Source: Eledone cirrhosa
Lineage: Eukaryota
Assembly (NCBI GenBank): GCA_964016885.1
Contig: OZ024740.1
Coordinates: 397,978,001 to 398,042,000 of the forward strand
Direction of reading: 5' to 3'
DNA length: 64,000 nucleotides
Position 1 is the stretch's first letter. Every line of letters begins with the position of its first letter. Under the pieces are notes generated by a model. That model was not told the origin of the DNA. It worked only from the letters and a program-made list of their open reading frames with translations, and ran no database searches. Shown here piece after piece: positions 5,628 to 63,597 of the stretch. A program made the position numbers and the translations under genes.

Positions 5628-5729
5628 ATGTATGTATGTATGTATGTATGTATGTATGTATGTATGTATGTATGTATGTATGTATGTATGTATGTATGTA
5701 TGTATGTATGTATGTATGTATGTATGTAT

Positions 5730-6323: not shown

Positions 6324-6401
6324 ATGTATGTATGTATGTATGTATGTATGTATGTATGTATGTATGTATGTATGTATGTATGTATGTATGTATGTTTGTA
6401 T

Positions 6402-6998: not shown

Positions 6999-7242
6999 AA
7001 TGTATGTATGTATGTTTTTCTGGTTTTATAATTTCACAAAGTTTTACCAATAGAGAGAGATTTGGTTTCTAACATAGACACAAGACTCTCTCATTGGAAT
7101 TTACACAACATCAACTAGGTAGGTATGTATGTATGCATGCATGTGTATATATGGATGTTATTGTATGTGTGGATGTGGATGTTTTGAGTTGTATGTGTGC
7201 ATGTGTATATGCTTTGCATCTGTATATGTGTATATGCAGTTA

Positions 7243-10200: not shown

Positions 10201-11095
10201 TCAACATTGTCGTTTTAACACGTTCAACCAGAGAGATATTTATACATGAGTTAATTTCTCTCTGGAAGATTTCATTGAGGGAAATTTTCAATTGTTTATA
10301 CTTTTGATTATCATTATCGATAGTATTTTCCACAATAGTCGAGGTAGTCTCGGATGGTACACGTGGTGTCAAATTTCTTCGATTATTATTGTTATCGAGA
10401 GTGTTTTCCCCAGCATTCGAGGTAGACTTAGATGGTACAGGTGGTGTCAAGTTTCTTACAGGCATAGTTGTTTCAAGACGCTGTTCGACCTGGCTGCTAG
10501 GAAGTCTAGTAGCATGACGACCTGTAGCACGTGTTGTTGATAACATGTTTGTTGTGGGGGACTTACAATTAATAATATTTATCTTATTTTTACGTTCAAC
10601 AAACGTCGCTTGTTGGCGTAATTGTTTCGCTGTGAAATAATGTAGCTCTGGGTGCATTTCGTCCCAGTGTAGCTTCATTCTGTTCATATAGCCAATGGAG
10701 GGATTTTTTTTTTTGCCATTTTATAACAATTAAATAAATCATTATTAAGTTCGCAACTCCAAGAGAAATGCGATTTATAATTTCGGTTTCTTCTGTAGCT
10801 ACAACTGAATAAAGTTTGATTACCTTCTTTGTTATTTGTCTTCGATACTTCCTTAATTTTCTTGTTGATGTTGTGTTCAGCCATGCTATTTGTAGCAAAT
10901 CCTTGTAAAATGAATTATGTATTTAGTTGGATATCTCTACGAATTCGAATAAAAGGTATCTTCAGAAGGGATAGTTAGAAGAATAACCAGTTATTCAATC
11001 TGATTGTAGTTATGGCATTACTGTCGGAGATAGTATTCATCTTAAATTTAATAAATAGTCTCCCACGCCAAAATATGCGACTGATCGCGTTTACT
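7243..11095 (-). pseudogene. R4/Dong-type non-LTR retrotransposon (RT, CCHC finger, restriction-like endonuclease), frameshifted
   Basis: Consecutive ORF pieces: NYRPIAC, WLDYRKAFDSVPHSW, GIFQEDSLS, FVDDLKLY, RLYLKRKQGGRGL, CRLC..E...H..S.C..RHD, NRPDI...VEISCP..K..Y. The 5' boundary is approximate. Confidence 0.9.
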
Positions 11096-19539: not shown

Positions 19540-19681
19540 TTAAAAGTTAAACAAGGTTCATTGAATACATCAAAGAATGAGTTTTACAATAGATTTGAAG
19601 CACTCAACAGTAAAGGTTTTCCAGAGTTATTAATATTAATTCAAAATATTAACAAAATAGATATTCTTGTGATCAAGTATA

Positions 19682-19744
19682 TTTTATTATACATATATCA
19701 GAGATACTGATTTAAGTTCAACAGTACGTCCTCATCAGATAAAA
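19682..19744 (-). ncRNA. Hammerhead motif in inverted pLTR (GAAA changed to GATA)
   Basis: TTTTAT-CTGATGA-GGACGTACTG...CAGTATCTCT-GATA-TATGTA-TA-ATAAAA. Confidence 0.6.
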
Positions 19745-19966
19745 TAAGATGATGTATGACATACCCTGACATAGTAGATGGTTAAGATTCAGTCATGGTA
19801 GTGATTAACATATGACAAAACTCAATATTTATACCCTAATATTGAGAACATGAGAAAAATATATAATACAAACAATAGAGAGGGTGCGTGTAATACAGCT
19901 TAAAAAATACATGGCATCAATATAACAGTTAATAAAATTCTTTTTAAACTACTGAAGAAAGAGGAA

Positions 19967-20510
19967 ATGAATATGGCCCAAAACATCGCTAAACTAAATA
20001 GTATAATTCTAAACCAAAATCAACATAATGCTATTAATAATAGTGTTAATATAAATAATAATAAATCGAAATGTAATTGTAGAAATAAACCAGATTGCTC
20101 TCTGCAAAATAATTGTCTGGATAGAAATCTGGTGTATAAATGGACCGTAAAAACAAATAACAACACATACAACTACATAGGGGCAACTTCTTCGACATTT
20201 AAATCGAGATTTGCGAATCACAAATGCTCATTTTCGAATCCTAATAGGAAATCTTCGACTTCTTTATCACAACTTATATGGTCATTAAAAGACAAAAATT
20301 TAAAATACTCGATTTTTTGGACGAAGCTTTGTAATAGTAAAATATACACGAACTCCTCTATATAAACTAACTGCAACCTCTGCACAAAGGAGACCCTATT
20401 AATAATTACTAATTACGAAACTTAACAAAAAAAGTGAATTATTCTCAAACTGCCTTCATAAAGCTTTGTCTACATTCCAAGCCTCGCAAAAAGTCAGGAA
20501 AAAACACTAA
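19967..20510 (+). pseudogene. PLE GIY-YIG endonuclease fragment
   Basis: KCNCR...C.LQNNCL..NLVY...YIGATSSTFKSRFANH...STSLS, then out-of-frame CNLC..E and LNKKSELFSNCLH. Homologous to the C-terminus of 57480-59444. Confidence 0.9.
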
Positions 20511-22454
20511 ACAATCAGGCCTTAATTTTTGACGTCTCTTATCAACTGTTGGGCTAAAAAGTCATAACGGTTTATAAAACTTTAATAATGCTTTATCTTC
20601 TAATCATTTATGATAGAATTAATGTTAGAATGAAGGATCCTCTTTAGATATACAAACATATTATTTGGTAACTTGTTTACTTGATAAATATGCACATCTT
20701 AGGATTATTTTAGATATTTATAATTTATCTGTCTCTGTTTTAAATATATAATTTGGATATTCAACTTGTAAATTTACCGATTACAATTGAACTGTAGATC
20801 ATTCACGCGTTTGCATATTTTATTCATTTTGAGTATGTTCTGGGGACTCAGAAAGTTAGATTTGCATTTATTTATTTTTATATATATCGAGGTATAAATA
20901 TAACAAACCATAACAGTCGACAAATATTGGTCTCTCTCTCCACTGAACTGGAGGTAAAACTACAATTATAGCATTACTAATAATGATTATAATTATTTAT
21001 TTATTAAATGTATACCATTTCATTAATACCTATAATAATATCTCTATATAGTTGTACAAATAGGTTTATCTAGTGTAATAACATACTCGTAGTTACATTT
21101 ATAAATAATTTAGACACTCAAATGACTCTATATTGTTATAAGTGTTTGATATTCCCTGGAAGTTCGAATTTATATAATGATTTTTACTTAATTTAATATA
21201 ATTTAATGTAATTTAATTTATTTTAATTAAATTTAAATTTAGATTACCTTCGGCTTTTTCAAATATTTAGCTCCTCTTTCTATCACATTCGCTAAAATAT
21301 TTTAGACGTATCTTTTGTCTAATTTATATTAAAACCATATTTCATTTTATAATATATTTTTAATATTGGGCATTTTTAAGTCTCGCAAACAATTCATTAT
21401 TTTTATTTTTTATTTTTATATTTATTTTGTATCTAGCCTCTATCATTAGGACTCATGTAGTTTTGAATTATATATTTGTAGTATATATATCAACTAAATG
21501 AAAATAATTGATATAAAACATTAATTTTTTAATAGTATATTTTAACTATATATATTTTTTAACAATATTTTCAGTAACTTATTTACTATATTGTATTATT
21601 GTATTTTGTTATATTATATATATTTGAAATGTAGCACCTTAAGTCTATAGACATTATAATCCTTATGCATTTTTGATCAACACTTATATATAATTATGCA
21701 TTTTTGATTAACACATATATATATAATTAAAAATTCAGACTTCTTTAAGTTTAGTTATAAGGCCGGTTGATCCTTTAGGCACTCAAACTGTTTAATCATA
21801 AATTATTTAATAATTGTAACTATAATTATTTTATGAATTAAATTATATGATAATTTTGGTAAAGATTAACTTCGGGAGGGTATAAAAGCATTATATATTT
21901 TCTCTCTCGTGTTTCGTAAATCCCTTTGTTTTCATAAAATTTGAATTTTAGAAATTAAACTTGATAGTATAATATAATATTAATACAAATACCTTTAAAA
22001 CCTAAAATATTACTATTACTCTGAAATAACTTAAATTAAATATGTTGAATATTAACGGTCATCTAAGTAAGTTTGGATATATATTGCATATATAGAAAAT
22101 TGTCTATAAACTTGAACATAAATTACTCCTCTTTGTCTCTCTATCTCTATAATCATCTCTCATTTGTTTTTTCGAGGCACCTACTAACTATATTATCCCA
22201 TCAGCTGTTTCTTCCTCTATGCTTTCCTTTCTTTCCTCTTTCTTCAGTAATTTAAAAAATTTGTTATTAACTGTTATATTGATGCCATGTATTTTTTAAG
22301 CTGTATTACACGCACCCTTTCTATTGTTTGTATTATATATTTTTCTCATGTTCTCAATATTAGGGTATAAATATAGGGTTTTGTCATATGTTAATCACTA
22401 CCATGATTGAATCTTAACCGTATACTATGTCAGGGTATGTCATGCATCATCTTA

Positions 22455-22497
22455 TTTTATCTGATGAGGACGTACCTCTGAAATATGTATAATAAAA
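22455..22497 (+). ncRNA. Hammerhead motif in 3' pLTR with stem II deletion
   Basis: TTTTAT-CTGATGA-GGACGTACCTCT-GAAA-TATGTA-TA-ATAAAA. Confidence 0.6.
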
Positions 22498-22537
22498 TAT
22501 ACTTGATCACAAGAATATCTATTTTGTTAATATTTTG

Positions 22538-22582
<45 letters not shown>

Positions 22583-24960: not shown

Positions 24961-25009
24961 CTGTATGTATGTGTAAATATATATGCGTGTGCATCTGTGT
25001 GTTTATGTA

Positions 25010-25102
<93 letters not shown>

Positions 25103-25103
<1 letters not shown>

Positions 25104-25698
25104 GACGGATGACGGATAGTCCTGGCTTACTCTATTTCTTAATTCATATGTATCACATCCGCAACAACGCAGCACGCCATTTTTCATCCCTATATTTTTC
25201 CTCCTTCGCTGTGACCTGTCTCTTTCTCTTCCCTTAATGCTATCCTCTTTCTCTCTCCCCCTCCTCTCTCCTTATACCTCTTACTTTCATTCACCCCTCT
25301 GCTAGTCACCCTCTCTCGGCTAGCCTCTTCCTCACACTTTTACTCACTCACTCTCTGCTACTCACCCTCTCTCACTCTCACCCGTCTGACCCTTGTGAAA
25401 TTCTTTTCTCGCTCACATTTCGCAAGGCTTGGACGCGTCTTTCGTCTTCTCGTCAAGGAATCGCCAGATCTTCTGTTCACTTGTATCACTGACTTGATGT
25501 TTCACTCTTTACGTTGCCTCACCATTCTTGTTTATTTACATGTCTCTCTTTCTCCACCCAATTCTTTTTATCCCAATAACTTTATTTAGTTATTGCTCGC
25601 GCTGGCTTGAGGTATATTATCTTTAACGTGAAGAAATACCTATCATGGCCAGAAGATCACTGATGACGGATAGTCCTAGCTTCTTACTCTATTTTTGA

Positions 25699-25702
<4 letters not shown>
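25103..25702 (+). mobile_element. ~600-bp insert in (TA)n with terminal direct repeats containing a partial HHR core
   Basis: GATGACGGATAGTCCT.GCTT..ACTCTATTT occurs at ~25108 and ~25662. The second copy is preceded by CT (CTGATGA-C-GGA-TAG-TCC), but no GAAA follows. Confidence 0.45.
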
Positions 25703-25781
<79 letters not shown>

Positions 25782-25833
25782 TACATATAAATATGTATAT
25801 ATGTATAAATATGTATATATATATATAAATATA

Positions 25834-25867
<34 letters not shown>

Positions 25868-25966
25868 CATACATACATATATATATACACACATATATAT
25901 ATATATATACATTAATATACATATTTCTACATTAATTTTGGATATACATATATACATATATATATT

Positions 25967-26030
<64 letters not shown>

Positions 26031-26331
26031 TATACCATATATACATATATATATACCATATATATATATATATATATACATATATATACCATATATATAT
26101 ATATATACATATATTTACCATATATATATATACATATATTTACCATATATATATATACATATATTTACCATATATATATATATATACATATATATACCAT
26201 ATATATACATATATATACCATATATATATATAGAGAGATATATACCATATATATATATATACATATATATACCATATACATATATATATATATATATAAA
26301 TATACATATATATACATATACATATATATAA

Positions 26332-26407
<76 letters not shown>

Positions 26408-26412
<5 letters not shown>

Positions 26413-26519
26413 AATAGAATGAAACGAAATTTCATTTCTCACTCTTAGTACGGCACTTACTTAAATGTAAGTATGTATGTATACGTACATACATACATGT
26501 ATACAGACGTACAGTAGCA

Positions 26520-26575
<56 letters not shown>

Positions 26576-27013
26576 TATACATACACGTACACATATATAT
26601 ATGTACGTATCAGTTTAGCGGACGTTTATTATAACGCCCGCTTTGTCCGTTTGTAAACAAACGGACAGCCTGATTTATGCCGTACGGTGTTAAGTCAACC
26701 ACGTCACCTTTTTGTTCAACACTGACACAGGAACGATGTACTAGTTTCAAGCTTCTTAGCTATCATCAGCACCGTATACCCTTCTGCCAGATGGTTGAAC
26801 GTTCGAAAGTATATACTTTCCTTATGAAAATTAACGGCTGAGCAGCCTAATTTGCATATCGAGTGAGTTCAGTCGGCCAGGCGTACCGAAAATGATAAGT
26901 TGTAATAGAATGAAATGAAATTTCATTTCTCACTCTTAGTACGGCACTTACTTAAATGTAAGTATGTATGTATACGTACATACATACATTTATACAGACG
27001 TACAGTAGCATGC

Positions 27014-27046
<33 letters not shown>

Positions 27047-27173
27047 TATACATACAGGTACACATATATATATGTACGTATCAGTTTAGCGGACGTTTAT
27101 TATAACGCCCGCTTTGTCCGTTAATTTTCATAAGGAAAGTATATACTTTCGAACGTTCAACCATCTGGCAGAA
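26408..27173 (-). mobile_element. ~490-bp HHR-containing non-coding unit (retrozyme-like family R), ~1.5 tandem units plus inverted 5' piece
   Basis: 26408-26650 is repeated at 26899-27122. 27118-27173 is the reverse complement of 26782-26837. HHR at 26733-26775. Confidence 0.85.
26733..26775 (-). ncRNA. Hammerhead ribozyme motif, family R
   Basis: ACGGTG-CTGATGA-T-AGCT-AAGA-AGCT-T-GAAA-CTAG-TA-CATCGT. Confidence 0.8.
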
Positions 27174-27227
27174 TGTGTGTGTATGTATGTATGTATGTAT
27201 GTATGTGCATATATGTATGTGTGTGTG

Positions 27228-27259
<32 letters not shown>

Positions 27260-27413
27260 TGTATGTATGTATGTATGTATGTATGTATGTATGTATGTAT
27301 GTATGTGTGTGTGTATGTGTGTGTGTATGTATGTGTATGTGTATGTATGTATGTGCATGTATGTATGTGTGTGTGTATGTATGTATGTGTGTGTGTATGT
27401 ATGTATGTGCATG

Positions 27414-27447
<34 letters not shown>

Positions 27448-27520
27448 TGTATGTATGTATGTATGTATGTATGTATTTATGTGTATGTATGTATGTATGT
27501 ATGTATGTATGTATGTATGT

Positions 27521-27560
<40 letters not shown>

Positions 27561-27655
27561 ATGTATGTATGTATGTATGTATGTATGTATGTATGTGTGT
27601 GTGTATGTGTGTGTGTATGTATGTGTGTGTGTATGTATGTATGTGCATGTATGTA

Positions 27656-27688
<33 letters not shown>

Positions 27689-27710
27689 GTATGTATGTAT
27701 GTATGTATAT
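27174..27710. repeat. (TATG)n/(TG)n compound microsatellite
   Basis: Direct reading. Confidence 0.95.
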
Positions 27711-28314
27711 GTCAGGTCACCAGTTGGTGCTACTGGTAACATGTATCCCAGTACAACCTGTCCCATGGTCGGGTCGTCGGTGTGTAAACTGGCAACCTGA
27801 CCAAGGTTTCTTGGTGAGGAGGGTGACTTTGGACATCCTGCAGGACTAAAAACAAAACCTGTCAAAGGGCAAAGGAGCTCTTAAGTGTCAATGGCCATCC
27901 AAAATCACCGGGAGAGATGACCCCTTAGCCTTTGTTAAGGCAGAATTCTAGGAGAAGGAAAACTCTGATATAACACCTGCAACTCTGATAGTATCCAATG
28001 TTGATTTGTTCTTCTTTTTGGTAAATATCATCTTGGTTAAGAGAGTGGGACTGGCTTTGTGCAGTGCCTTTGCTCACTATAAAAGCTTCACGGCACAGGC
28101 ATCGCTTTATATCTGGAGATCTCTTTGCACTTGTCGTCACATGGTACCATGGGCCCAGCACTATGTGTCAATAATTGTCACAAGTGTAGTGTTTGTACCA
28201 GAGTTTTCAAGTCGCTGGCTGGACTAAAAAGTCACACTCGTCAGCGCATCGGTAGGGTTTCTCCTACATGGATATAAAGTAGTGGCCGTACTCGAAAACG
28301 AGTTGGCAGCCACC
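27711..28314 (+). mobile_element. ~600-bp bipartite RTE-derived element, copy 4
   Basis: Similar to 6402-6998, flanked by (ATGT)n. Confidence 0.8.
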
Positions 28315-29018
28315 ATGTATGTATGTATATATGTATGTATGTGTGTGTGTATGTATGTATTCATGTATGCGTGTTTGAATGGATGGATGTGCATGCATTA
28401 TTGTATGTTTGTATGTATGTAACATGTATGTATGTATTTATGTATGCATGCCTGCTTGCATATATGTATGTTTGTATATATGTATGCCTGTATGCATGTA
28501 TGTGTGTGTGTGTAAGTATGTATGTGTGTTTGTATGTATATATGTAAATATGTACGCATGTATGTATGTGTGTGTGTAAGTATGTATGTAAATAAGTACG
28601 CATGCATGTATGCATGTATAAGTTTGCTGTCGTTATTAAGGTGACGGTGGTTTTTGCGGGCTGTGAGGTCGGGGAGGGAGGAGAGCATGGCGGCAGTGGT
28701 AAGTGTGTATGTTTGTGTCTGGTGTAAGATGAGGTTGATGGTGGGATTGAAAATGATAAGGGTGGGTTTTTATAGAAGGAAGGGTGGCAATAAGTAGTTA
28801 ACGGTGGCGTGGTTGGTGCGTGGGCTGCGTGCCTGAGTGTTGGTTGGTGGTTTAGTGAAGTGCTTAGGGGAGAAGCTGAGTGTGAGCGAGAGCAGGTGAG
28901 GCGGGGTCTGAAACAACGACAACAACAACGACAACGTCAATACCAATGACAACAACAACAACGACAACAAAAAAGAAGCATATGTATTCACACCATTCAG
29001 CTTCTTCTCGTTATTTTT

Positions 29019-29071
<53 letters not shown>

Positions 29072-29243
29072 TGAAGCAGTAATAGTAGTAGTAGCAGTTG
29101 CAGGAGCAGCAGTAGTAGTAGTAGTAGTAGTAGCAGCAGCAGCAGTAGTAGTAGTAGTAGTATTAGTAGTAGTAGTAGTAGTAGTAGTACTAGTAGCAGC
29201 AGCAGTAGTAGTAGTAGTAGTAGTAGTAGCAGCAGCAGTAGTG

Positions 29244-29334
<91 letters not shown>

Positions 29335-29362
29335 CAGTAGTAGTAGTAGTAGTAGCAGCAGC

Positions 29363-29393
<31 letters not shown>

Positions 29394-29455
29394 ATAGCAG
29401 CAGCAGTAGTGGTAGTAGTAGTAGCAGCAGCAGTAGTAGTAGTAGTAGTAGTAGT

Positions 29456-29520
<65 letters not shown>

Positions 29521-29521
29521 C

Positions 29522-29555
<34 letters not shown>

Positions 29556-29938
29556 ATAGCAGCAGCAGCAGTAGTAGTGGTAGTAGTAGCAGCAGCAGCA
29601 GTAGTAGCAGCAGTAGTAGTAGTAGTAGTAGTAGCAGCAGCAGCAGCAGTAGTAGTAGCAGCAGTAGTAGTAGTAGTAGTAGTAGCAGCAGCAGTAGTAG
29701 TAGTAGCAGCAGCAGTAGTAGTAGCAGCAGCAGCAGTAGTAGTAGTAGTAGTAGCAGCAGCAGCAGCAGTAGTAGTAGCAGCAGCAGTAGTAGTAGTAGT
29801 AGTAGTAGTAGTAGCAGCAGCAGCAGTAGTAGTAGCAGCAGTAGTAGTAGTAGTAGTAGTAGCAGCAGCAGCAGTAGTAGTAGCAGCAGCAGTAGTAGTA
29901 GTAGTAGTAGTAGTAGTAGCAGTAACAGCAGCAGCAGC
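29019..29938. repeat. (GTA)n/(GCA)n interleaved trinucleotide array
   Basis: Direct reading. Confidence 0.95.
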
Positions 29939-30182
29939 TCCATTCGCCGATGTCAAATCTGCCATGCAAAAATTTCGTTCAGACACCCCCCCCCCTCTCT
30001 TGCTCTACATGTCCTCTGCGGTGAAGGGGGTGGGAGTGTGAACACCTCTGGCTACGATGCCCTGGAGAGCGAGAGATACCATCACAAACTCGGCACATCC
30101 TTGGAGGAATTAGTCCGTCTCCCAGTTGCATCTCTACCACTTCTGAGGAGGATACTCAGGCACCTGAGGTGAATCAGAAGAA

Positions 30183-30215
<33 letters not shown>

Positions 30216-30330
30216 GGTAGTAGTAATAGTAGTAGTAGTAGTAGTAGTAGTGGTAGTAGTGGTGGTGATGGTCGTGAGAGTCTGCTTGTCGTATAAGTTG
30301 TTTTTGCTGTTGGGAAATGTGGCTTTTATA

Positions 30331-33300
30331 GGTGTGGTGGTAGTGGTGGTAGTGGTGGTAGTGATGGTGGTGATCGTGTTGGTAGTTGTGGTGGCTCTGG
30401 TGGTAGTGGTGGTAGTGGTGGTAGTGGTGGTTGTGGTGGTAGTGGTGGTTGTGTTGGTTGTGGTGGTTGTGTTGGTTGTGGTGGTAGTGGTGGTTGTGTT
30501 GGTTGTGGTGGTTGTGGTGGTAGTGGTGGTAGTGGTGGTGGTGATCGTGTTGGTAGTTGTGGTGGCTCTGGTGGTAGTGGTGATAGTGGTGGTAGTGGTG
30601 GTAGTGGTGGTAGTGGTGGTTGTGGTGGTAGTGGTGGTTGTGTTGGTTGTGGTGGTTGTGTTGGTTGTGGTGGTGGTGGTGGTTATGTTGGTTGTGTTGG
30701 TTGTGGTGGTTGTGGTGGTTCTGGTGGTAGTGGTGGTAGTGGTCGTAGTGGTGGTTGTGGTGGTTGTGGTGGTAGTGGTGGTAGTGGTGGTAGTGGTGGT
30801 TGTGTTGGTAGTGGTGGTAGTGGTGGTTGTGTTGATTGTGTTGGTTGTGTTGGTTGTGGTGGTAGTGGTGATAGTGGTGGTTGTGTTGGTTGTGGTGGTG
30901 GTGGTAGTAGTGGTGGTAGTGGTGGTAGTGGTGGTTGTGGTGGTAGTGGTGGTAGTGGTGATAGTGGTGGTAGTGGTCGTTGTGTTGGTATTGATGGTAT
31001 TGGTGGTAGTGGTGGTTGTGTTGGTAGTGGTGGTAGTGTTGGTTGTGTTGGTTGTGGTGGTAGTGGTGGAAGTGGTGGTAGTGGTGATAGTGGTGGTAGT
31101 GTTGGTTGTGTTGGTTGTGTTGGTTGTGGTGGTTGTGGTGGTAGTGGGGGTAGTGGTGGTTTTGTTGGTAGTGGTGGTAGTGGTGGTAGTGGTGGTTGTG
31201 TTGGTTGTGGTGGTAGTGGTGGTAGTGGTGGTTGTGTTGGTAGTGGTGGTAGTGGTGGTTGTGTTGGTTGTGGTGGTAGTGGTGGTAGTGGTGATAGTGG
31301 TGGTAGTGTTGGTTGTGGTGGTTGTTGTGGTAGTGGTGGTAGTGGTGGTTTTGTTGGTAGTGGTAGTTGTGGTGGTAGTGGTGGTTGTGTTGGTAGTGGT
31401 GGTATGGTGGTTGTGTTGGTTGTGGTGGTTGTGGTGCTAGTTGTGATGGTGGTAGTGGTGGTTGTGCTGGTTGTGTTGGTTGTGGTGGTTTTGGTGGTTG
31501 TGGTGGTTGTGGTGGTAGTGGTAGTAGTGGTGGATGTGTTGGTAGTGGTGGTAGTGGTGGTTGTGTTGGTTTTGGTGGTAGTGGTGGTAGTGGTGGTTGT
31601 GTTGATAGTGGTGTTACTGGTGGTTGTGTTGGTTATGGTGGTAGTGGTGGTAGTGGTGGTTGTGGTGGTAGTGGTGGTTGTGTTGGTTGTGTTGGTTGTG
31701 GTGGTAGTGGTGGTAGTGGTGGTTGTGTTGGTAGTGGTGGTAGTGGTGGTTGTGTTGGTTGTGGTGGTAGTGGTGGTAGTCGTGGTTGTGGTGGTAGTGG
31801 TGGTTGTGTTGGTTGTGTTGGTTGTGGTGATTGTGTTGGTAGTGCTGGTAGTGGTGGTTGTGTTGGTTGTGGTGGTAGTGGTGGTAATGGTGGTAGTGGT
31901 GGTAGTGGTGGTTGTGTTGGTTGTGCTGGTTGTGGTGGTTGTGGTGGTAGTGGTGGTAGTGGTGGTTGTGTTGGTTGTGGTGGTAGTGGTGGTAGTAGTG
32001 GTTGTGTTGGTTGTGTTGGTTGTGCTGGTTGTGGTGGTCGTGGTGGTGATCCTGTTGGTAGTTGTGGTGGCTGTGGTGGTAGTGGTGGTAGTGGTGGTTG
32101 TGGTGATAGTGGTGGTATTGGTGGTTGTGTTGGTTGTGGTGGTAGTGGTGGTTACGGTGGTAGTGGTGGTTGTGTTGGTTGTGGTGGTAGTGGTGATGGT
32201 GGTGGTAGTGGTGGTTTGTGTTGGTTGTGTTGGTAGTGGTGGTAGTGGTGGTTGTGTTGGTTGTGGTGGTTGTGGTGCTAGTGGTGATCGTGGTGGTTAT
32301 GTTGGTAGTGGTTGTAGTGGTGTTTGTGTTGGTTGTGGTGGTAGTGGTGGTAGTGTTGGTTATGTTGGTAGTGGTGGTTGTGTTGGTTTTGGTGGTAGTG
32401 GTGATAGTGGTGGTAGTGGTGATAGTGGTGATAGTGGTGGTAGTGGTGGTTGTGTTGGTTGTGTTTGTTGTGGTGGTTGTGGTGGTTGTGCTGGTAGTGG
32501 TGGTAGTGGTAGTAGTGGTGGATGTGTTGGTAGTGGTGGTAGTGGTGATAGTGGTGGTAGTGGTGGTTGTGTTGGTTTTGGTGGTAGTGGTGGTAGTGGT
32601 GGTAGTGGTGGTTGTGTTGATAGTGGTGTTACTGGTGGTTGTGTTCGTTGTGGTGGTAGTGGTGGTAGTGGTGGTTGTGGTGGTAGTGGTGGTTGTGTTG
32701 GTTGTGGTGGTAGTGGCGGTAGTGGTGGTTGTGTTGGTTGTGGTGGTTGTGGTGCTAGTGGTGATAGTGGTGGTAGTGGTGGTAGAGGTGGTTGTGTTGG
32801 TTGCGGTGGTTGTGGTGGTTGTGGTGGGAGTGGTGGTAGTGGTGGTTGTGTTGGTTGTGTTGGTTGTGTTGGTTGTGGTGGTAGTGTTGGTTGTGGTGGT
32901 AGTGGTGATAGTGGTGGTAGTGGCCGTTTTGTGTTGGTTGTGGCGGTTGTAATGGTAGTGGTGGTAGTGGTGGTAGTGGTGGTTGTGTTGGTAGTGGTGG
33001 TTGTGTTGGTTGTGGTGGTAGTGGTGATAGTGGAGGTAGCGGTGATAGTGGTGATAGTGGTGGTAGTGGTGGTTGTGTTGGTTGTGTTGGATGTGGTGGT
33101 TGTGGTGGTTGTGGTGGTAGTGGTGGCAGGGGTGGTTGTGTTGATTGTGCTTGTAGTGGTGGTAGTGGTGGTTGTGTTGGTAGTGGTGGTAGTGGTGGTT
33201 GTGTTGGTTGTGTTGGTTGTGGTGGTAGTGGTGTTTGTGTTGGTAGTGGTGCTAGTGGTGGTTGTGTTGGTTATGCTGGTAGTGGTGGTAGTGGTGGTAG

Positions 33301-35925
33301 TGGTGGTTGTGTTGGTTGTGCTGGTTGTCGTGGTAGTGGATGTATTGGTGGTAATGGTGGTAGTGGTGGTTGTGTTGGTTGTATTGGTTGTGGTGATTGT
33401 GTTGGTAGTGGTGGTAGTGGTGGTTGTGTTGGTTGTGGTGGTAGTGGTGATAGTGTCGGTTGTGGTGGTAGTGTTGGTTGTGTTGGTTGTGTTGGTTGTG
33501 GTGGTAGTGGTGGTAGTGGTGGTTGTGTTGGTTGTGGTGGTAGTGGTGGTAGTGGTGGTAGTGGTGGTTGTGTTGGTTGTGGTGATTGTGGTGGTGGTGG
33601 TGATCGTGTTGGTAGTTGTGGTGGTAGTTGTGGTGGCTGTGGTGGTAGTGGTGATAGTGGTGGTCGGGTGGTAGTGGTGGTTGTGGTGGTAGTGGTGGTT
33701 GTGGTGATAATGGTGGTGATCCTGTTGGTAGTTGTGGTGGTAGTTGTGGTGGCTGTGGTGGTAGTGGTGATAGTGGTGGTCGGGTGGCTGTGGTTGTAGT
33801 GGTGGTAGTGGTGGTTGTGGTGGTTGTGGTGGTAGTGGTGGTAGTGGTGGTTGTGTTGGTAGTGGTGGTAGTGGTGGTAGTGGTGGTTGTGTTGGTTGTG
33901 GTGGTAGTGGTGGTAGTGGTGGTAATAGTGGTAGTGGACATAGTGGTGGTTCTTTTGGTTGTGTTGGTTGTGGTGGTTGTGGTGGTTTTCGTGGTAGTGT
34001 TGGTAGTGGTAGTTGTGTTGGTTGTGTTAGTTGTGGTGATTGTGTTGGTAGTGGTGGTAGTGTTGGTAGTGGTGGTAGTGGTGGTAGTGGTGGTTGTGTT
34101 GGTTGTGTTGGCTGTGGTGGTAGAAGTTGTAGTCGAGGTTGTGGTGGTAGTGGTGGTAGTGGTGGTTGTGTTGGTTGTGGTGGTTGTGGTGGTAGTGGTG
34201 GTGGTGGTGATAGTGGTGGTAGTGGTGGTTGTGTTGGTAGTGTTAGTTGTGGTGATTATGTTGGTAGTGGTGGTGGTTGTGTTGGTTGTGGTGGTAGTGG
34301 TGATAGTGGTGGTAGTGGTGGTAGTGGTGGTTGTGTTGGTAGTGGTGGCAGTGGTGGTTGTGTTGGTTGTGGTGGTTGTGGTGGTAGTGGTGGTAGTGGT
34401 GGTTGTGGTGGTAGTGGTGGTGATCCTGTTGGTAGTTGTGGTGGCTGTGGTGGTAGTGGTGATAGTGGTGGTTGTGGTGGTAGTGGTGGTAGTGGTGGTA
34501 GTAGTGCTAGTGGTGGTAGTGGTGGTAGTGGTGGTTGTGTTGGTTGTGTTGGTTGTGGTGGATGTGGTGGTTGTGGTGGTAGTGGTGGTAGCGGTGGTTG
34601 TGTTGGTTGTGGTGGTAGTGGTGGTAGTATGGAGGTGGTGGTAGTGGTGGTTGTGTTGGTTGTGGTGATTGTGGTGGTGGTGGTTTTCGTGTTGGTAGTT
34701 GTGGTGGTAGTTGTGGTGGCTGTGGTGGTAGTGGTGATAGTGGTGGTAGTGGTGGTAGTGGTGGTAGAGGTGGTTGTGGTGGTAGCGGTGGTAGTGGTGG
34801 TAGTCGTGGTTGTGTTGGTTGTGGTGGTAATGGTGGTAGTGGTGGCTGTGTTGGTTGTGGTGGTTGTGGTGGTAGTGGTGGTAGTGGTGGTTGTGGTGGT
34901 AGTGGTGGTGTTCCTGTTGGTAGTTGCTGTGGTGGTGGTGGTAGTGGTCGTTGTAGTGGTTGTGTTGGTTGTGGTGGTAGTGGTGGTAGTGGTGGTAGTG
35001 GTGGTAGTGGTGGTTGTGTTGGTTGTGGTGGTAGTGGTGGTAGTGGTGGAGATGGACTTAGTGGTGATTGTGTAGTTTGTGGTGATTGTGGTGGTAGTGG
35101 TGATAGTGGTGGTAATGGTGGTAGTGGTGGTAGTGGTGGTAGTGGTGGTAGAGGTGGTAGTGGTGATAGTGGTGGTAGTGGTGGTAGTGGTGGTAGTGGT
35201 GGTTGTGTTGGTTGTGGTGGTAGTGCTGGCTGTGTTGGTTGTGGTGGTTGTGGTGGTAGTGGTGGTAGTGGTGGTTGTGGTGGTAGTGGTGGTGATCCTG
35301 TTGGTAGTTGCTGTGGTGGTGGTGGTAGTGGTCGTTGTGGTCGTTGTGTTGGTTGTGGTGGTAGTGGTGGTAGTGGTAGTGGTGGTAGTGGTGGTAGTGG
35401 TGGTTGTGTTGGTTGTGGTGGTAGTGGTAGTGGTGGTGGTGGTGGTTGTGGTGGTAGTGGTGGTGGTGGTGGTGGTTGTGGTGGTTGTGGTGGTAGTGGT
35501 GGTTGTGGTGGTAATGGTGTTGGTGGTGGTAGTGGTGGTGGTGTTGGTGGTGGTGTTGGTTGTGGTGGTAATTGTAGCAGTGGTGGTGGTGGTGGTAGTG
35601 CTGGTAGTGGTAGTGGTAGTGGTGGTAGTGGTGGTGGTGGTGTTTGTGGTGGTTGTGGTGCTAGTGGTGATGGTGGTTTTGTTGGTTGTGGTGGTGGTAG
35701 TGGTGTTAGTAGTGGTAGTGGTGGTAGGGGTGGTGGTGGTGGTGGTGGTTGTGGTGGTTGTGGTGGTTGTGGTGGTAGTGGTGGTGGTGTTGGTGGTGGT
35801 GGTGGTAGTGGTGGTGGTGTTGGTTGTGGTGGTTGTGGTGGTAGTGGTGGTAGTGGTGGCAGTGCTGGTGGTGGTGGTGGTGTAGTGGTGGTAGTGGTGG
35901 TAGTAGTGGTAGTGGTGGTAGTAGT
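30331..35925. repeat. 5.6-kb degenerate GTN-triplet array (GTGGTGGTA / GTGGTGGTT / GTGTTGGTT 9-mers)
   Basis: Direct reading. A variant block GTGATC(C/G)TGTTGGTAGTTG recurs through the array. Confidence 0.95.
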
Positions 35926-36797
35926 GATAGGGGTGATGCCTCCCCTCCTCGACGTCGTCGATATTGTACAAGGAAAAAGCAAATACCGATACAGCTTAGC
36001 AATAGTATTATCACAGGCGAACACAGAACAGTGCAATGCAGTTTGCCTAACGCTCTGATATTGCCGCCTACTTCTTTATTTTTGCGAGCCTGGAAGGTAG
36101 TAAGGCAAAGTTCACTTCGATGGGATTTGGACTTAGAACGTATCTTCCGATTGAGCTATAGGAGCGCCGTCCTAATATACGGCGTGCCTTGGATATTTAA
36201 ACCTGGCGGAACCTATCACCTCTCCACCTCTGAACACAGACGATTTCTTCGAGAGAAGGCTCGAGAGTGAGAAAGTGAAAATGAGAAAGATATATAGAGG
36301 CAGAATCGACCCTATTAGTCGACTGGTACTTTTTTTTTATTGACCTCGAAAAGATGAAAACAAAGTTGATCTCAGAAAACCGGAACGAATACCATCAAGC
36401 ATTCTATCCGATGAACCAATTCGCCGCCTATTTTTTAATAATATTGACGATTAATTTTTTTTTACGTAGGTACAAATTATGGTTGAGAGCATAAGTTCGC
36501 TTCGCAATCATGTATTTTCGAGTTTGAGCCCACTGCGTGACATCTTAGCATACATTCGGATCGATCAAAACCTGTCAGTGAAATTAATATATGAAAATCA
36601 GCCGAATGGATTGAACCTGTCAAACGGAGGTCAAGCCTTATCACATATTATGCAGATCTATAGCAGATAAGTAGTCGACAGAATGATGAGGTGCGATCGA
36701 TTGATCCCGCACTCAAAAGATGGAACGGTCATGGATGGCGAGTAGATTGGACGATAAAATGGCGACAGAAAAATAGGCTTACAAAATACAGTATCAT

Positions 36798-38700: not shown

Positions 38701-38706
<6 letters not shown>

Positions 38707-38813
38707 CAGGTACACATACATATATGCACGTATCAGTTTGTTTACAAACGAACAAAGCGGCGTTATAATAAGCGTCTGCTAAACTGATACGTGCATATAT
38801 GTATGTGTACCTG

Positions 38814-38871
<58 letters not shown>

Positions 38872-39305
38872 TGCTACTGTACGTCTGTATACATATATGT
38901 ATGTACGTATACACACATACTTACATTTAAGTAAGTGCCGTACTAAGAGTGAGAAATGAAATTTCGTTTTCATTTTTTTCAACTCATCGTTTTCGGTATG
39001 CCTGACCGACTTAGCTCACTCGATATGCAAATTAGGCTGCTCAGCCGTTAATTTTCATAAGGAAAGTATATACTTTCGAACGTTCAACTATCTGGCAGAT
39101 GGGTATACGGTGCTGATGATAGCTAACAAGCTTGAAACTAGTACATCGTTCCTGTGTCAGTGTTGAACAAAAAGGTGACGTGGTTGCCTTAACACCGTAC
39201 GGCATAAAAATTTAGGCTGTTCAGTTTGTTTACAAACGAACAAAGCGGCGTTATAATAAGCGTCTGCTAAACTGATACGTGCATATATGCATGTGTACCT
39301 GTATG

Positions 39306-39373
<68 letters not shown>

Positions 39374-39487
39374 TGCTACTGTACGTCTGTATACATATAT
39401 GTATGTACGTATACACACATACTTACATTTAAGTAAGTGCCGTACTAAGAGTGAGAAATGAAATTTCGTTTTCATTTTTTTTTCAAC
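38701..39487 (+). mobile_element. Retrozyme-like family R, ~1.5 tandem units with inverted 5' piece
   Basis: 38733-38983 is repeated at 39221-39487. 38701-38739 is inverted against 38781-38819. HHR at 39107-39149. Flanked by (TA)n. Confidence 0.85.
39107..39149 (+). ncRNA. Hammerhead ribozyme motif, family R
   Basis: ACGGTG-CTGATGA-T-AGCT-AACA-AGCT-T-GAAA-CTAG-TA-CATCGT. Confidence 0.8.
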
Positions 39488-39511: not shown

Positions 39512-39654
39512 TAACAAAGAGGAATTTTGGTAAGGAACCAGATGGACCATAACGCACCAGAGTACTCAATACTTAGGGTAGTAGAGTGGGAAATAGGAAA
39601 AACTATGACCCCGACGGCAGAGCTCAAACCGTTTCGACAGCTATTACTTTTTCC

Positions 39655-39739: not shown

Positions 39740-39867
<128 letters not shown>

Positions 39868-39911
39868 CTTCAAAATATTAATAAATATAGACATTCATGT
39901 GATCAAATATA

Positions 39912-39973
39912 TTTTATTATACATATTTCAGAGGTACTGAGCTATTTCATCAGTACGTCCTCGTCAGATAAAA
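39912..39973 (-). ncRNA. Intact hammerhead motif in a solo pLTR fragment (39866-39995) of the 19541-22541 family
   Basis: TTTTAT-CTGACGA-GGACGTACTGA...TCAGTACCTCT-GAAA-TATGTA-TA-ATAAAA. Confidence 0.75.
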
Positions 39974-40052
39974 TAAATTGATGTCTGACATACCTCAACT
40001 GTGCTGATGGTTCAATTCCAGTCTTGGCAGTCTGTATATATATATATATATA

Positions 40053-47858: not shown

Positions 47859-47862
<4 letters not shown>

Positions 47863-51855: not shown

Positions 51856-52146
51856 TAAGTATGTATACGTACATACATATATGTATACAGACGTACAGTA
51901 GTATGTATATATATATATACATGCACACATATATATATGTACGTATGGATTTACCGAACATTTATTATAATGCTCGGTTTGTTTGTAAACAAACATCCCG
52001 AATTAAGCCGTACAGTGTTTAGCAACCATCGTTGCCCTTTTGTTCAACACTGACAAAGGAACCATGTACTAGTTTCAAGCTTATTAGCTATCGTCAGCAC
52101 CGTATACCTTCCTGCCAGATGATTGAACGTCTGAAAGTATATACTG
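51856..52146 (-). mobile_element. Retrozyme-like family R, partial unit
   Basis: Homologous to 60097-60372. HHR at 52061-52103. Confidence 0.8.
52061..52103 (-). ncRNA. Hammerhead ribozyme motif, family R
   Basis: ACGGTG-CTGACGA-T-AGCT-AATA-AGCT-T-GAAA-CTAG-TA-CATGGT. Confidence 0.75.
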
Positions 52147-52878: not shown

Positions 52879-52882
<4 letters not shown>

Positions 52883-55304: not shown

Positions 55305-55372
<68 letters not shown>

Positions 55373-55520
55373 GATTAGAATACTGGAGCGTGTTTGAGTC
55401 AAACACCCTCTTCGTATTATAGAAATGACAGTAAAAGGTATAGCTCAATGCAGTTAAACAGAGCTAAAAAATTAAGAGAGTAAAACAAAGAATCCTTTAA
55501 TACATCAAAAGTTTTTATTA

Positions 55521-55558
55521 GCCGACAATGTTTCGTCCTATTAAGGACTCATCAGGGC
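55521..55558 (-). ncRNA. Canonical hammerhead ribozyme motif in the Naiad 3' pLTR
   Basis: GCC-CTGATGA-GTCCT-TAAT-AGGAC-GAAA-CATTG-TC-GGC. Confidence 0.85.
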
Positions 55559-55896
55559 AATCAAAACAACAAGAGGTAATATCGGCAGATACAAGCCAGA
55601 AACTCTGAAGAATATGGAGTGTACATACACTAATGTCTTACAAAGATATAGGATAATAAAAATGAAAATAAAGATAAAAATAATAAAAATATATAATAAC
55701 TAAGGATGTAGATAACATTAAGAACCATATTACAAATATAGTCCAAAGCCACCAACCTAAATCTAAACAAATTTGGTTATATAGAGCAGGAATTATATAT
55801 AACACAATATAATACATTATAATAATAATATATTTATACCAACATTAAAATTCCAAATTAAAAATCAAAAGGTACAATATATACATGTATATATGT

Positions 55897-55955
<59 letters not shown>

Positions 55956-57479
55956 ACAATACACATATCTATGTTCTATTACACAGAAATTAAGCCCTAT
56001 TAGAAGTTTGAATATTAAAAATAAGCATGGTAATAGTGAAAATAATACTAATACATCTACCCAATATACATGAGGCAATAATATGATATAATTACAAGAA
56101 ACACATATAACAAATAATAAACAACAAAATTATATAATTCAATACAATATAATAAAGTAGAATAGATAATCCCCGGTTAATTTACAGAAACAATATAGAT
56201 GTCACAATGAAATACAATGATAAAATGTTAACATTATATTAACAAGTACCATAAACAATATATACAAATTGATTCATACTGGGTTACATAATAAATGAGG
56301 AAATATAAATCATATAATACTCAAAAAAACTATAATGGTACAGGGAAAAATTGTGATGTTACAGAAAAAATATGATGTTACAGAAAAAAATATACAGACG
56401 TCTAGCATGATATGTAAAGTCTAAATATCATAATGTTACATATTACAATATTAAAAAAAAACCCAGACATCTTACATGATATATAAAGTTTAAATATCAT
56501 AATGTTATATATAATGAACGGTAAGTAATAAGGATCTATATCATAATGTAATATATTTTAAAATTGGCATAAAATATATAAATACTTATAATTACAAGGT
56601 TAGTAGACAGACATGTGTGGATGAGTGAGCGAAGCCAGACGGTGAATAGTAAATAGAATATAGAATAAAACAAATAAATACAATCAACCGGAAATTACAA
56701 AACAAAAGCAAATGTATACACATTTAGGCCTCGCGTGCATTAAGAAATTAGGTAAACACCAAGGAAAGCGATCATTTTAAATGACTCCAAACCCTATCTG
56801 ATAAATTAATATTAAAAATATCGAACCCGTCCAATAAGGTAGTATAATATTAGCTGTAGTTTAAGTCATTAAAGTATATAAACTTTAATGTATCATTACA
56901 AATGTTTACAAAAAGGAATAAAATTACACTATCATATACGCAACGATATCTAAAAAAACTGACTTAAGTAGAGTTAAGGTAGGCTAATGGGGACAGAATT
57001 GACAAAATATATGGAGGGTGCGAAGTGGCATAAAATATATTCGATATACTATAATAAATAATAGAACGGAGCATAAAAGAGGGGGGGGGGTAAATATAAT
57101 CATATTCAATCTGGAGGGGTTGACAATAAGTTTATGTGTGCATGGGGGGGGGGGGAGAAAGGGGGGGGGGGTTGTCAATAGGTAAATCAGAATAGACTTA
57201 GAAATAAAAATAGAATTAAAAATAAAACTAAAAATAATATTAATTAAAATTAAAGTTAATAATAATAAAAAAATATAAAGATAATAATAGAATAACGTAA
57301 GTGGCGTAAAGTGTGTAATCTTATGTATACTAACAAGGTGTAATAGTGAAGACATAGATATGGTACAGTGGCCAAATGATTATGAGAGCTAGAATGAAGA
57401 GTCATCAAAAACCAATGATAACATTAATGTTGGCAAACAAAAGAACCCAAACAAAAAACTAAGTAATGGAATATATCTG

Positions 57480-59444
57480 CTAATGGGTACAATTTGTACT
57501 ACTAGAACATTTGGGTTTATAATAAAAATAAGAATTAGAAATGGCATGGGGGCAAGAAGAGAATATCTCAGACTTTCTATTCAGTAAGGGTACGCTAGAG
57601 AAAATAATAGAGTGTGTCTCAAGTATACAGAGATTACAAAACTTACTATGTGCAGAAAGGTGGTTAGATCGTGCAACTAAACTCCAGTTAAGGCTATATG
57701 GTATATAAGCTCCCTTAAGATCACAGATATAATGCGCTAGAGAGGTAGAATTCTTAAACCTAACATGTTTGAAGTTAGAGATATGAGAGTTAAACCTAGT
57801 CTTAAAAGTGTTTGAAGTAGATCCTATATACGTTCTTTTAGAGGAATTAGTTATAACCTCGCAAGCATAGACAATGTTCTTAGAAAGGCAGTTACCGTTT
57901 AGAGGGCAGTTAGCACTCACTCTACAATTGCACTTCCGGGTGTTATTGGTTGGCTCGAGTGGTGATGTATTGCACGTAGGACCTCTATTAGATAAGGACT
58001 GTTCTGGTGGTAAAGCATTGTCCGATGCATTCAGACTAGTAGTATGTAGAGAGGAGAATCCATCCCTAATTTTCCTATTATTAGTGCTAGCTAAATGAGA
58101 ACTAATATTAGGGGTGGTAGAGAATGAGAGTTTAATAACATTTTTATTAAAAATACCATGGTATTTGTGAGAAGGGGGGAAATTTTTCTCCAAGATAGTG
58201 AATAAAGACCTAGGGATATTAGTTGATACATCCTGATTATATGGCGGGTTGAAATAAGTATTCAATCGCCTTCTATTTTTATTTTTATTCTTATCGACCC
58301 TACCTCTATCAAATGTCCCACCGTCGAGACTAGGGTTACTATCGGGAATAGTTGAAGCCACATTCATAGAATCAGCCATAATTTCGTTATGCCTATTATA
58401 GTTTCTACCTCTAGTAGATCCGCTGTTGTCCAGAATCCCTACAAGAGGATTAAGGCCAATGATAGGATCAGTAGGAGCAACATTACTAGAATAAGATCCA
58501 GCCAAACCAACACCAATGCGTGAGCGCACAGGGGGCTCGACTTGTCTCTTAGAGGTATTATATTTGTTATTACGAGTCCGGTGGGATAATTTATGGGTGG
58601 GTTCAGATACTCCTATATAAGTTCTATGGTTACTATGTTTGCTACTCCCATTCATGGCCATGTTATGTGATATAATGTTATTATTATTAAGAGTAAGCGG
58701 AGACTTTCCAAAGTTACTATTATTATAATTTATTTTACTAGAGTGACCTGAATTTGCTAGGGCATTATTGTAGTACTCCGCATGTTCATTAAAAGTTCCT
58801 ATGTCCTTAGATAGTGTGGAAATCCTATTAGAAACGCCCTTAATTATAGAGTTTATCATAGACTTAGGGTGGTTAGAATTGGGGCTAACATAAGAAAGAA
58901 TTTCATTAGGCTTATGGAAGGGTTTAAAACTATTAGTGGCCAAGTCCAAAGTCACATCTAAAAAGTTAACCGCTCTATCATTTCTATCTATCGTGATTGA
59001 AAGGTTGTAGCTTTTAAAAAACTTATAAAGCTTCTTCTTATTACGTTCTACATTGTTGGTACTAGAGTTAATTACAAAAAATGCATCATCGCGATATAGT
59101 CCGCCTACAAGGTGCGGGAAAGTAGCGTATAGTTTATTAAGGAGGAACAACCCAACAAGATCAGTAACCTGGGCCGAATCACTCGAACCCATTGTAACGT
59201 CGAAATTATTGGGCGTGTTTTTACGGGTCCAAAAAGTGTCCTCAAATTTAATAATAGTTTTACGGGCTGCTAGTATAATATCTACCTGCGATCGTGTAAG
59301 GCTGGACACTCTCATGGCCAACATTAAGGCTTTATTGAGGAGGATGGGTGAAATTGATGTGTAGTAGGCATCAATATCGAATTGGATAAACTTATTAGAT
59401 TCAAGTCTATTAATCCCAGAGAACCAATCTATAACTTCCCTAGT
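57480..59444 (-). CDS. Penelope-like reverse transcriptase / GIY-YIG endonuclease (N-terminally truncated, frame open)
   Basis: The frame is open upstream of the track ATG (VIDWF...FIQFDIDAYYTSI). Motifs: FDVTMGSSDSAQ, GLYRDD, VNFLDV, SNHP, YFNPPY, CNCR..CPLNGNCL, IVY..TYIGST, CNLC..E, LN.KSE...CPH. Confidence 0.93.
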   Translation of the reverse strand, partial: TREVIDWFSGINRLESNKFIQFDIDAYYTSISPILLNKALMLAMRVSSLTRSQVDIILAARKTIIKFEDTFWTRKNTPNNFDVTMGSSDSAQVTDLVGLFLLNKLYATFPHLVGGLYRDDAFFVINSSTNNVERNKKKLYKFFKSYNLSITIDRNDRAVNFLDVTLDLATNSFKPFHKPNEILSYVSPNSNHPKSMINSIIKGVSNRISTLSKDIGTFNEHAEYYNNALANSGHSSKINYNNSNFGKSPLTLNNNNIISHNMAMNGSSKHSNHRTYIGVSEPTHKLSHRTRNNKYNTSKRQVEPPVRSRIGVGLAGSYSSNVAPTDPIIGLNPLVGILDNSGSTRGRNYNRHNEIMADSMNVASTIPDSNPSLDGGTFDRGRVDKNKNKNRRRLNTYFNPPYNQDVSTNIPRSLFTILEKNFPPSHKYHGIFNKNVIKLSFSTTPNISSHLASTNNRKIRDGFSSLHTTSLNASDNALPPEQSLSNRGPTCNTSPLEPTNNTRKCNCRVSANCPLNGNCLSKNIVYACEVITNSSKRTYIGSTSNTFKTRFNSHISNFKHVRFKNSTSLAHYICDLKGAYIPYSLNWSLVARSNHLSAHSKFCNLCILETHSIIFSSVPLLNRKSEIFSSCPHAISNSYFYYKPKCSSSTNCTH

Positions 59445-59468
59445 GATCCCTTTGTCAGCTAATAAAAA

Positions 59469-59510
<42 letters not shown>

Positions 59511-59537
59511 TTTTTATTAGCCGACAAAGGGAACACT

Positions 59538-59588
<51 letters not shown>

Positions 59589-60094: not shown

Positions 60095-60100
<6 letters not shown>

Positions 60101-60657
60101 TATGTATACGTACATACATATATGTATACAGACGTACAGTAGTATGTATATATATATACATACATGCACATATATATGTGTACGTATGGATTCACCGAAC
60201 ATTTATTATAATGCTCGGTCTGTTTGTAAACAAACATCCCGAATTAAGCCGTACAGTGTCTAGCATTTGTTCAGCACTGACAAAAGCACGCTGTACTAGT
60301 TTCAAACTTATTAGCTATCGTCAGCAACGTATACCTTCCTGCCAGATGGTTGAACGTCTGAAAGTATATACTTTCCTTATGCATATTAACGGCTGAGCAG
60401 CCTAATTTGCATATCGAGCGAGTTAATCGGCCGGGGTACCGAATTGGGATGTTTCGGGATGTTTGTTTACAAACACACCGAGCATTATAATAAATGTTCG
60501 GTGAATCTATACGTACATATATATATGTGTGCATGTATGTATATATATATACATACTACTGTACGTCTGTATAAATATATGTATGTACGTATACATACTT
60601 ATATTTAAGTAACAGCCGTACTAAGAGTGAGAAATGAAATTTCGTTTCATTTTTTCC

Positions 60658-60658
<1 letters not shown>
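60095..60658. mobile_element. Retrozyme-like family R in fold-back form
   Basis: 60095-60243 is inverted against 60453-60603. Tail at 60604-60658. HHR at 60288-60330. Confidence 0.85.
60288..60330 (-). ncRNA. Hammerhead ribozyme motif, family R variant
   Basis: ACGTTG-CTGACGA-T-AGCT-AATA-AGTT-T-GAAA-CTAG-TA-CAGCGT. The stem I G.U pair is switched to U.G relative to other copies. Confidence 0.8.
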
Positions 60659-63554: not shown

Positions 63555-63562
63555 CCTTCTAT

Positions 63563-63597
<35 letters not shown>

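Follow-up and report, generated by a model that had tools for sequence, protein, structure and literature searches.

Family R, a short non-coding repeat with four copies in the window (the whole 64,000-nucleotide stretch of DNA analysed here), is likely a new and very abundant family of non-LTR retrozymes, new with respect to the literature searched. We consider it moderately probable that its copies were made by a Penelope-like enzyme from an RNA monomer that was probably circular. The first-pass annotation had called the family retrozyme-like, and every sequence-level feature of a non-LTR retrozyme is present.

Re-reading of the sequence placed the copies at 26408-27173, 38701-39487, 51856-52146 and 60095-60658, as annotated, and bore out the hammerhead motif, the read-through, the common tail, the inverted pieces and the named palindromes (Table 1). 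In the unique core copy 2 is 93% identical to copy 1, and copies 3 and 4 are 80-83% identical to it. Copy 3 has neither a tail nor an inverted piece. The unit lacks an ORF, as had been claimed: the longest ATG ORF in the doubled unit spans 59 aa and derives from the microsatellite. The core GC content (125/288) lies within the retrozyme criterion of GC <50%, and no tRNA gene was found in the 64-kb window. The proposed unit length of ~490 bp applies to the subfamily whose internal (TA)n is long but not to another, whose units measure 420-426 bp; units with expanded (TA)n in the other subfamilies range from 456 to 567 bp. The subfamilies had been counted as two, which is too few since helix I occurs in at least three variants. 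Two features were absent from that annotation: the closure of stem II by U.U rather than G-C, and a second, tail-less 3' end.

Table 1. Family R copies, their hammerheads and a comparator Penelope-like element (PLE) in the window
Feature	Position	Strand	Remarks
Copy 1, one full 491-bp unit	26408..26898	-	3' tail end at 26408 adjoins (TA)n
Copy 1, tail (~60 nt)	26408..26471	-	lies between the two fixed 3' ends; contains GAAAUGAAA/UUUCGUUUC hairpin
Copy 1, second unit, 5'-truncated	26899..27122	-	read-through across the unit junction
Copy 1, inverted piece	27118..27173	+	unit positions 62-117
Copy 2, whole	38701..39487	+	short inverted piece from 38701; partial unit 38734-38983; read-through; full unit to tail end at 39487, into (TA)n
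Copy 3, 5'-truncated single arm	51856..52146	-	tail-less 3' end; hammerhead with one broken helix I pair
Copy 4, inverted arm	60095..60443	-	tail-less 3' end; hammerhead (CUGA at 60324, U.G wobble variant)
Copy 4, direct arm	60444..60658	+	stops at tail end into (TA)n
Copy 1, type I hammerhead	26730..26780	-	predicted cut between 26739 and 26738
Copy 2, hammerhead	39102..39152	+	CUGA at 39113
Comparator outside family R, 5'-truncated autonomous PLE	55371..59541	-	RT + GIY-YIG frame 57480-59471; own hammerhead

The family is abundant in the 3.0-Gb host genome, an animal genome whose SINEs and microsatellites look like those of an octopus. A 31-nt pattern of the hammerhead core has 24,811 exact matches (reversed control, 0) and the segment just downstream of it 31,008, which puts the copy number at roughly 25,000-31,000. 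The first 100 core matches, covering the first 22 Mb of C1, fall into 58 clusters, of which 37 hold a single hammerhead; extrapolation from this stretch gives about 14,000 insertions with an intact core. The best genome DNA matches to copy 1 are 98-99% identical to it, arguing that the family is young. A loosened hammerhead pattern uncovered a sister family, S (9,669 matches), whose units measure 466-470 bp and whose arms reach 31 units. The two families are collinear over the full unit and have diverged throughout, with local identities of 65-80%. S loci (for example L136-L165 and L202-L226) have canonical G-C hammerheads, follow the same two-end rule and appear very young.

The hammerhead of copy 1 consists of helix I ACGGUG/CAUCGU, CUGAUGA, a stem II of U.U plus AGCU/AGCU, GAAA and the palindromic stem III ACUAGU. 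The canonical core (C3 U4 G5 A6 N7 G8 A9, G12 A13 A14, A15.1-U16.1, H17) is present in all four window copies. A descriptor search matched copies 1, 2 and 4; copy 3 keeps the core, but a C>G change breaks one helix I pair. A scan against Rfam returned zero matches at the gathering score and a weak match to Hammerhead_HH9 at 26721-26783 on the minus strand (18.1 bits, E 0.15, gathering 52). Rfam miRNA matches were discarded as (TA)n artefacts, and the fold z-score of -12 for the unit is inflated by the (TA)n hairpin. Helix I occurs as ACGGUG/CAUCGU, ACGUUG/CAGCGU and ACGAUG/CAUCGU in R; the S form is AUAUUG/CAAUAU. For stem II, R has AGCU/AGCU and S either GUUGU/ACAAC or GAUGU/ACAUC, while the stem III palindrome is common to both families. 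The change from G.U to U.G in helix I, the variable stem II loop (AAGA/AACA/AAUA) and CUGAYGA are all as first described.

In 15 rows drawn from the R subfamilies and S, of which 14 have letters, 95.2% of the hammerhead cells pair. Both partners have changed in 24 cells of these rows; shuffles gave 8.4 such cells and slid controls no more than 5. Because of the kinship among the rows, the shuffle figure cannot be read as a probability. Sister family S contributes the compensatory changes of helix I and helix II. Apparent selection for the hammerhead RNA fold across the R subfamilies and S counts as evidence for the retrozyme reading. Position 10.1-11.1 is U.U in 10/10 R rows and G-C in 4/4 S rows; the canonical G10.1-C11.1 pair does not occur in these R rows, and no R copy carrying it was present among 11 genome matches to a pattern able to catch it. 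R thus resembles the U10.1-U11.1 variants of Perreault 2011 (PMC3088659), where U.U at the base of stem II is reported to occur naturally, to preserve activity better than other mismatches and to be rejected by a standard hammerhead filter. The variant is fixed in R (~25,000 copies), whereas S keeps G-C.

Helix I of R, at 6 bp with an internal loop, resembles the canonical type more than the minimal PLE type described in PMC4209133. The palindromic stem III recalls the dimeric hammerheads of amphibian satellite and PLE repeats (Cervera 2014, PMC4209133), for which a palindromic helix III of 1-2 bp leads to a predicted dimeric fold; neighbouring hammerheads of family R are likewise predicted to be able to pair as a dimer. 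The octamer ATGCAAAT lies in a hairpin arm and is kept in all R and S units (26850-26857 on the minus strand of the window). Newt satellite 2 reportedly has an snRNA-type promoter with an octamer.

The ends of R insertions follow a strict pattern. R has two fixed 3' ends ~60 nt apart: one after the tail (...CAACTTAT or ...CGTTTAT, then (TA)n) and one earlier (...CATACTTA, then (TA)n). Inside arrays the letters of the tail end run on into the next unit. Typing of ends by script in 86 R loci, 55 chosen by the hammerhead pattern and 31 by DNA search, gave 67 tail ends, 68 tail-less ends and 93 read-throughs. One tail arm and one tail-less arm make up 37 of the 39 head-to-head pairs in these loci (binomial p 3e-9; one locus is counted twice via a local duplication). 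In the two exceptions, the tail is cut short by other sequence and the locus is composite, respectively. The same rule holds in 11/11 two-armed S loci, one of them read from the sequence by eye. The 5' ends of R are scattered, with 38 starts between positions 14 and 230 within the core. Insertions lie in (TA)n or AT-rich sites, and their 3' ends have 1-4 bases in common with the (TA)n target. A clear target duplication, of 9 bp, was found once, at an AT-rich site (locus L094); elsewhere the (TA)n flanks blur it.

These features are of the PLE type: 5' truncation, partial tandems, an inverted 5' arm and a microsatellite target. PLE insertions are described with an inverted arm and an optional tail at one end (PMC3846280, PMC8557442), and an anole PLE in vitro uses two internal start sites for reverse transcription, with both DNA strands cut and extended (PMC11167929). 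Family R is very probably a PLE-mobilised non-autonomous element. Mobilisation by PLEs, which the first-pass annotation had taken from the literature as a hypothesis, is thus backed here by the insertion ends, in 37 of 39 pairs. The same ends bear on the idea that R is a minisatellite whose hammerhead is a passenger and which spread at the DNA level, be it through extrachromosomal circles, unequal exchange or Helitron-like copying. Irregularly shared variants in long arrays are compatible with later unequal exchange, but two fixed 3' ends, a single tail per insertion, scattered 5' ends, head-to-head inversions and the 9-bp duplication at one locus are marks of target-primed reverse transcription, and 37 of the 58 sampled insertions carry a single hammerhead. 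Spread at the DNA level is strongly disfavoured, its probability being close to negligible.

PLE mobilisation would also fit a unit that is no more than the pseudo-LTR (pLTR) of some autonomous PLE outside the sample, with the R copies as truncated insertions of that PLE, the reading that the first-pass annotation had set against its own. pLTRs do have PLE ends and a type I hammerhead, and four PLE families were compared out of 62,709 first-look PLE candidates, which leaves room for such a parent. However, the 133 unit starts in 85 R loci follow a whole tail (120), a partial tail (12) or an inverted piece (1), and an ORF in frame direction precedes none of the 133. The tail end continues into the next unit, and arrays of up to 10 R units and up to 32 S units consist of unit sequence only. 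None of the four resident families compared, among them that of the window PLE, that of the PLE nested with R in L094 and one at L034, matches R as a parent or partner, their hammerheads or ends being different, and none has a pLTR homologous to R. A loosened hammerhead pattern aimed at an R parent gave 11 matches, namely eight S variants and three unrelated sequences. A pLTR origin of the copies is very improbable.

The comparator PLE in the window combines RT, a cysteine linker and GIY-YIG in one 663-aa frame with a 1.9-kb 3' UTR, a canonical-core hammerhead and a short inverted head. Intact 915-aa frames of its family exist in the genome, and the family has the same two-end pattern, with ends 101 nt apart. 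It has no sequence likeness to R, and its tail end leads towards the ORF, whereas that of R leads into the next unit. The cysteine linker suggests that this PLE belongs to the Neptune group. PLE fragments near R copies are separate or nested insertions. Locus L094 was considered as an R-PLE chimera and rejected: R is inserted into a PLE there, flanked by the target duplication. Part of this composite (L094:4000-7060) occurs again, inverted.

Several other elements share the window. A small hammerhead family unrelated to R (60965-61144, 63378-63597) has a U.U-closed stem II and a long stem III; it has 23,595 genome matches, often in close inverted pairs, and its loop 2 is highly variable. Fragments at 19637-20480, 22232-22540, 39866-40031 and 52881-53138 contain TATTTTAT-CTGA hammerheads with a palindromic stem III; one adjoins a GIY-YIG remnant, and we read them as further PLE families. 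A short family (1485-1622, 39520-39649, 47860-47916, 59816-60018), often a palindromic insertion between (TA)n tracts, is also nested in an R copy (L045). A 371-bp inverted repeat (53800-54170 and 54377-54743, 97.6%) flanks a T-rich tract, and a degenerate trinucleotide repeat of ~7 kb occupies 28950-36075. One SINE family contributes about 14 copies, and remnants of LINEs lie at 3855-10720.

Which RNA served as the template can be approached through the copies themselves. Linear cut monomers used as templates would yield 5' ends at the cut site. Among ~31,000 copies, breaks within three bases of the cut site number 186, compared with 512 at a control ten bases downstream, both counts including small indel alleles. 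Few copies start at the cut site, which argues that the templates were circles or uncut multimers, and the copies read through it, as the circular or multimeric template proposed in the first-pass annotation requires. The two arms of one insertion differ by a median of 0.02, compared with 0.098 to other loci (33 pairs); the arms are identical in six pairs and differ by more than 0.10 in two. Several arrays are clonal, and in a two-armed S array of 20 units all 18 whole units are identical. A single template per insertion thus appears to be common. The haplotype of the identical S array occurs in a sublineage of seven loci, however, so that the identity could likewise stem from a homogeneous source array. 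The nearest neighbour lies strictly within the same locus for only 33 of 76 units. In R array L097 two haplotypes 13 sites apart alternate, and one S array holds 19 haplotypes in 29 units, with variants irregularly shared. Mosaic structure was found in 15 R cores, compared with 8-14 in column-shuffled controls; three breakpoints span the cut, and there is no excess at the cut site. In a single S array (L261:1250-2300) the 5'-most unit and a tiny inverted arm have one haplotype and the rest another, with the switch between cut +1 and +70.

Some of these data fit a different template for the same PLE-mobilised element, namely linear RNA that reads through existing arrays and is left uncut. In that case the hammerhead would be weak or act elsewhere in the cycle, and long arrays would beget long ones, followed by local amplification. 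Heterogeneous and ABAB arrays, chimeric arm pairs, the one two-haplotype array and the mosaic breakpoints, which show no excess at the cut site, all accord with such a template, as does the closure of stem II by U.U. The anole PLE in vitro takes mainly uncut RNA and can dispense with its own hammerhead (PMC11167929). However, the hammerhead helices are kept by double changes in families that diverged unit-wide, which is hard to understand if cutting only destroys the template, and arms as long as 31 units would require source arrays just as long. We regard linear read-through RNA as a possible but rather unlikely template. Granted a PLE-mobilised element, a circle is fairly probable as the main template. 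Compensatory change has kept the hammerhead in a non-coding parasite that is read through its cut, and retrozyme RNA circles are reported from mussel, coral and axolotl (PMC7229834), both of which favour the circle. The use of uncut RNA by the anole PLE and the report that eight of nine Xenopus dimers did not cleave (Li et al. 2026, bioRxiv 10.64898/2026.07.22.740005) disfavour it.

With a circle as template, we infer the following course, including cleavage, the circle and the identity of the enzyme. R arrays would be transcribed, and neighbouring hammerheads in the transcript would pair via the palindromic stem III and cleave after GUA. A host ligase would close the monomer. At a (TA)n or AT-rich target, a PLE protein would then nick the two strands and start one cDNA on each of them, using two fixed internal priming sites ~60 nt apart. 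Synthesis of each cDNA would run in reverse past the cut site and across the unit junction, covering anything from part of a unit to many units, and the two cDNAs would join head to head.

Host A-to-I editing may have left traces in family S. Among insertion-fixed changes in S, A>G accounts for 9 of 24, compared with 16 of 136 among singletons (p 0.004; three of the nine come from one locus). In R, A>G accounts for 1 of 12 insertion-fixed changes, and the ratio of A>G to T>C among shared minor variants, 17:10 in R and 11:14 in S, reveals no excess of A>G. One sublineage of S carries GTGCGGAT in place of the octamer, a difference of three A>G changes within a single hairpin arm (70 matches, seven loci). 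Nearly all of its units are identical, and they form long arrays (C1:30.83 Mb, L205+L215; L257-L263). The GTGCGG variant was considered as private to one array, a view rejected on its occurrence in seven loci. Reverse-transcribed A-to-I editing is a possible origin of this sublineage and is offered as a lead only. A bolder synthesis is that R and S copies record the whole reaction of a PLE on a ribozyme-made RNA circle, in which a dimeric enzyme starts from two fixed sites of the circle on the two strands of a cut (TA)n and rolls out two multi-unit arms, and in which A-to-I editing by the cephalopod-like host is sometimes written back to the genome, as in the three A>G changes that would have founded the S sublineage; we put it forward tentatively, as doubtful at present.

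Like the metazoan non-LTR retrozymes described in PMC7229834 and by Li et al. 2026, R consists of short non-coding tandem units of low GC content, each with a type I hammerhead, that are dispersed as monomers to long multimers and co-occur with PLEs. R differs in the length of its units, which reach 470-570 bp via the internal (TA)n, and in the U.U of stem II; its cleavage and its circular RNA are predictions. The longest units exceed the 150-450 bp given by Cervera & de la Pena 2020 (PMC7229834) and fall inside the range of 51-972 bp given by Li et al. 2026. The latter propose that retrozymes are non-autonomous PLE derivatives, on the basis of 31 vertebrates, three insects and one anthozoan. 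In both reports PLE mobilisation is drawn from co-occurrence and pLTR homology, whereas here it is drawn from insertion ends; evidence of this kind appears unusually direct.

R shares with endonuclease-bearing PLEs, as described in PMC3846280, PMC8557442 and PMC11167929, 5' truncation, partial tandems, a head-to-head inverted arm, an optional tail, microsatellite or AT-rich targets and two internal start sites. Unlike them, it has no RT or endonuclease ORF, its tail measures ~60 nt rather than 30-40 bp, and both of its arms can be many units long. Its 3' ends match the (TA)n target by 1-4 bases, whereas the start site of the anole PLE is reported as non-homologous (PMC11167929). As non-coding PLE parasites with multicopy head-to-tail insertions, Chlamys elements such as MRC1 (Craig et al. 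2021, PMC8557442) resemble R. No description of family R was found in the literature searched, which stopped short of Repbase, Dfam, supplements and repeat libraries. 'Octopus' does not occur in the main text of PMC7229834, nor 'ribozyme' in that of the 2026 Octopus vulgaris repeat annotation (PMC13282606).

For the return of animal retrozymes to genomes, the circle as template is so far a hypothesis. Family R offers tens of thousands of young copies, two base-exact start sites and the one-tail rule, together with an intact PLE family in the same genome, which makes trans-mobilisation and rolling-circle copying directly testable in the PLE assay already published for in vitro use. The R/S pair is in addition a natural comparison of U.U with G-C at the base of stem II. 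As some hammerhead searches discard the U.U form, families of this kind may be undercounted.
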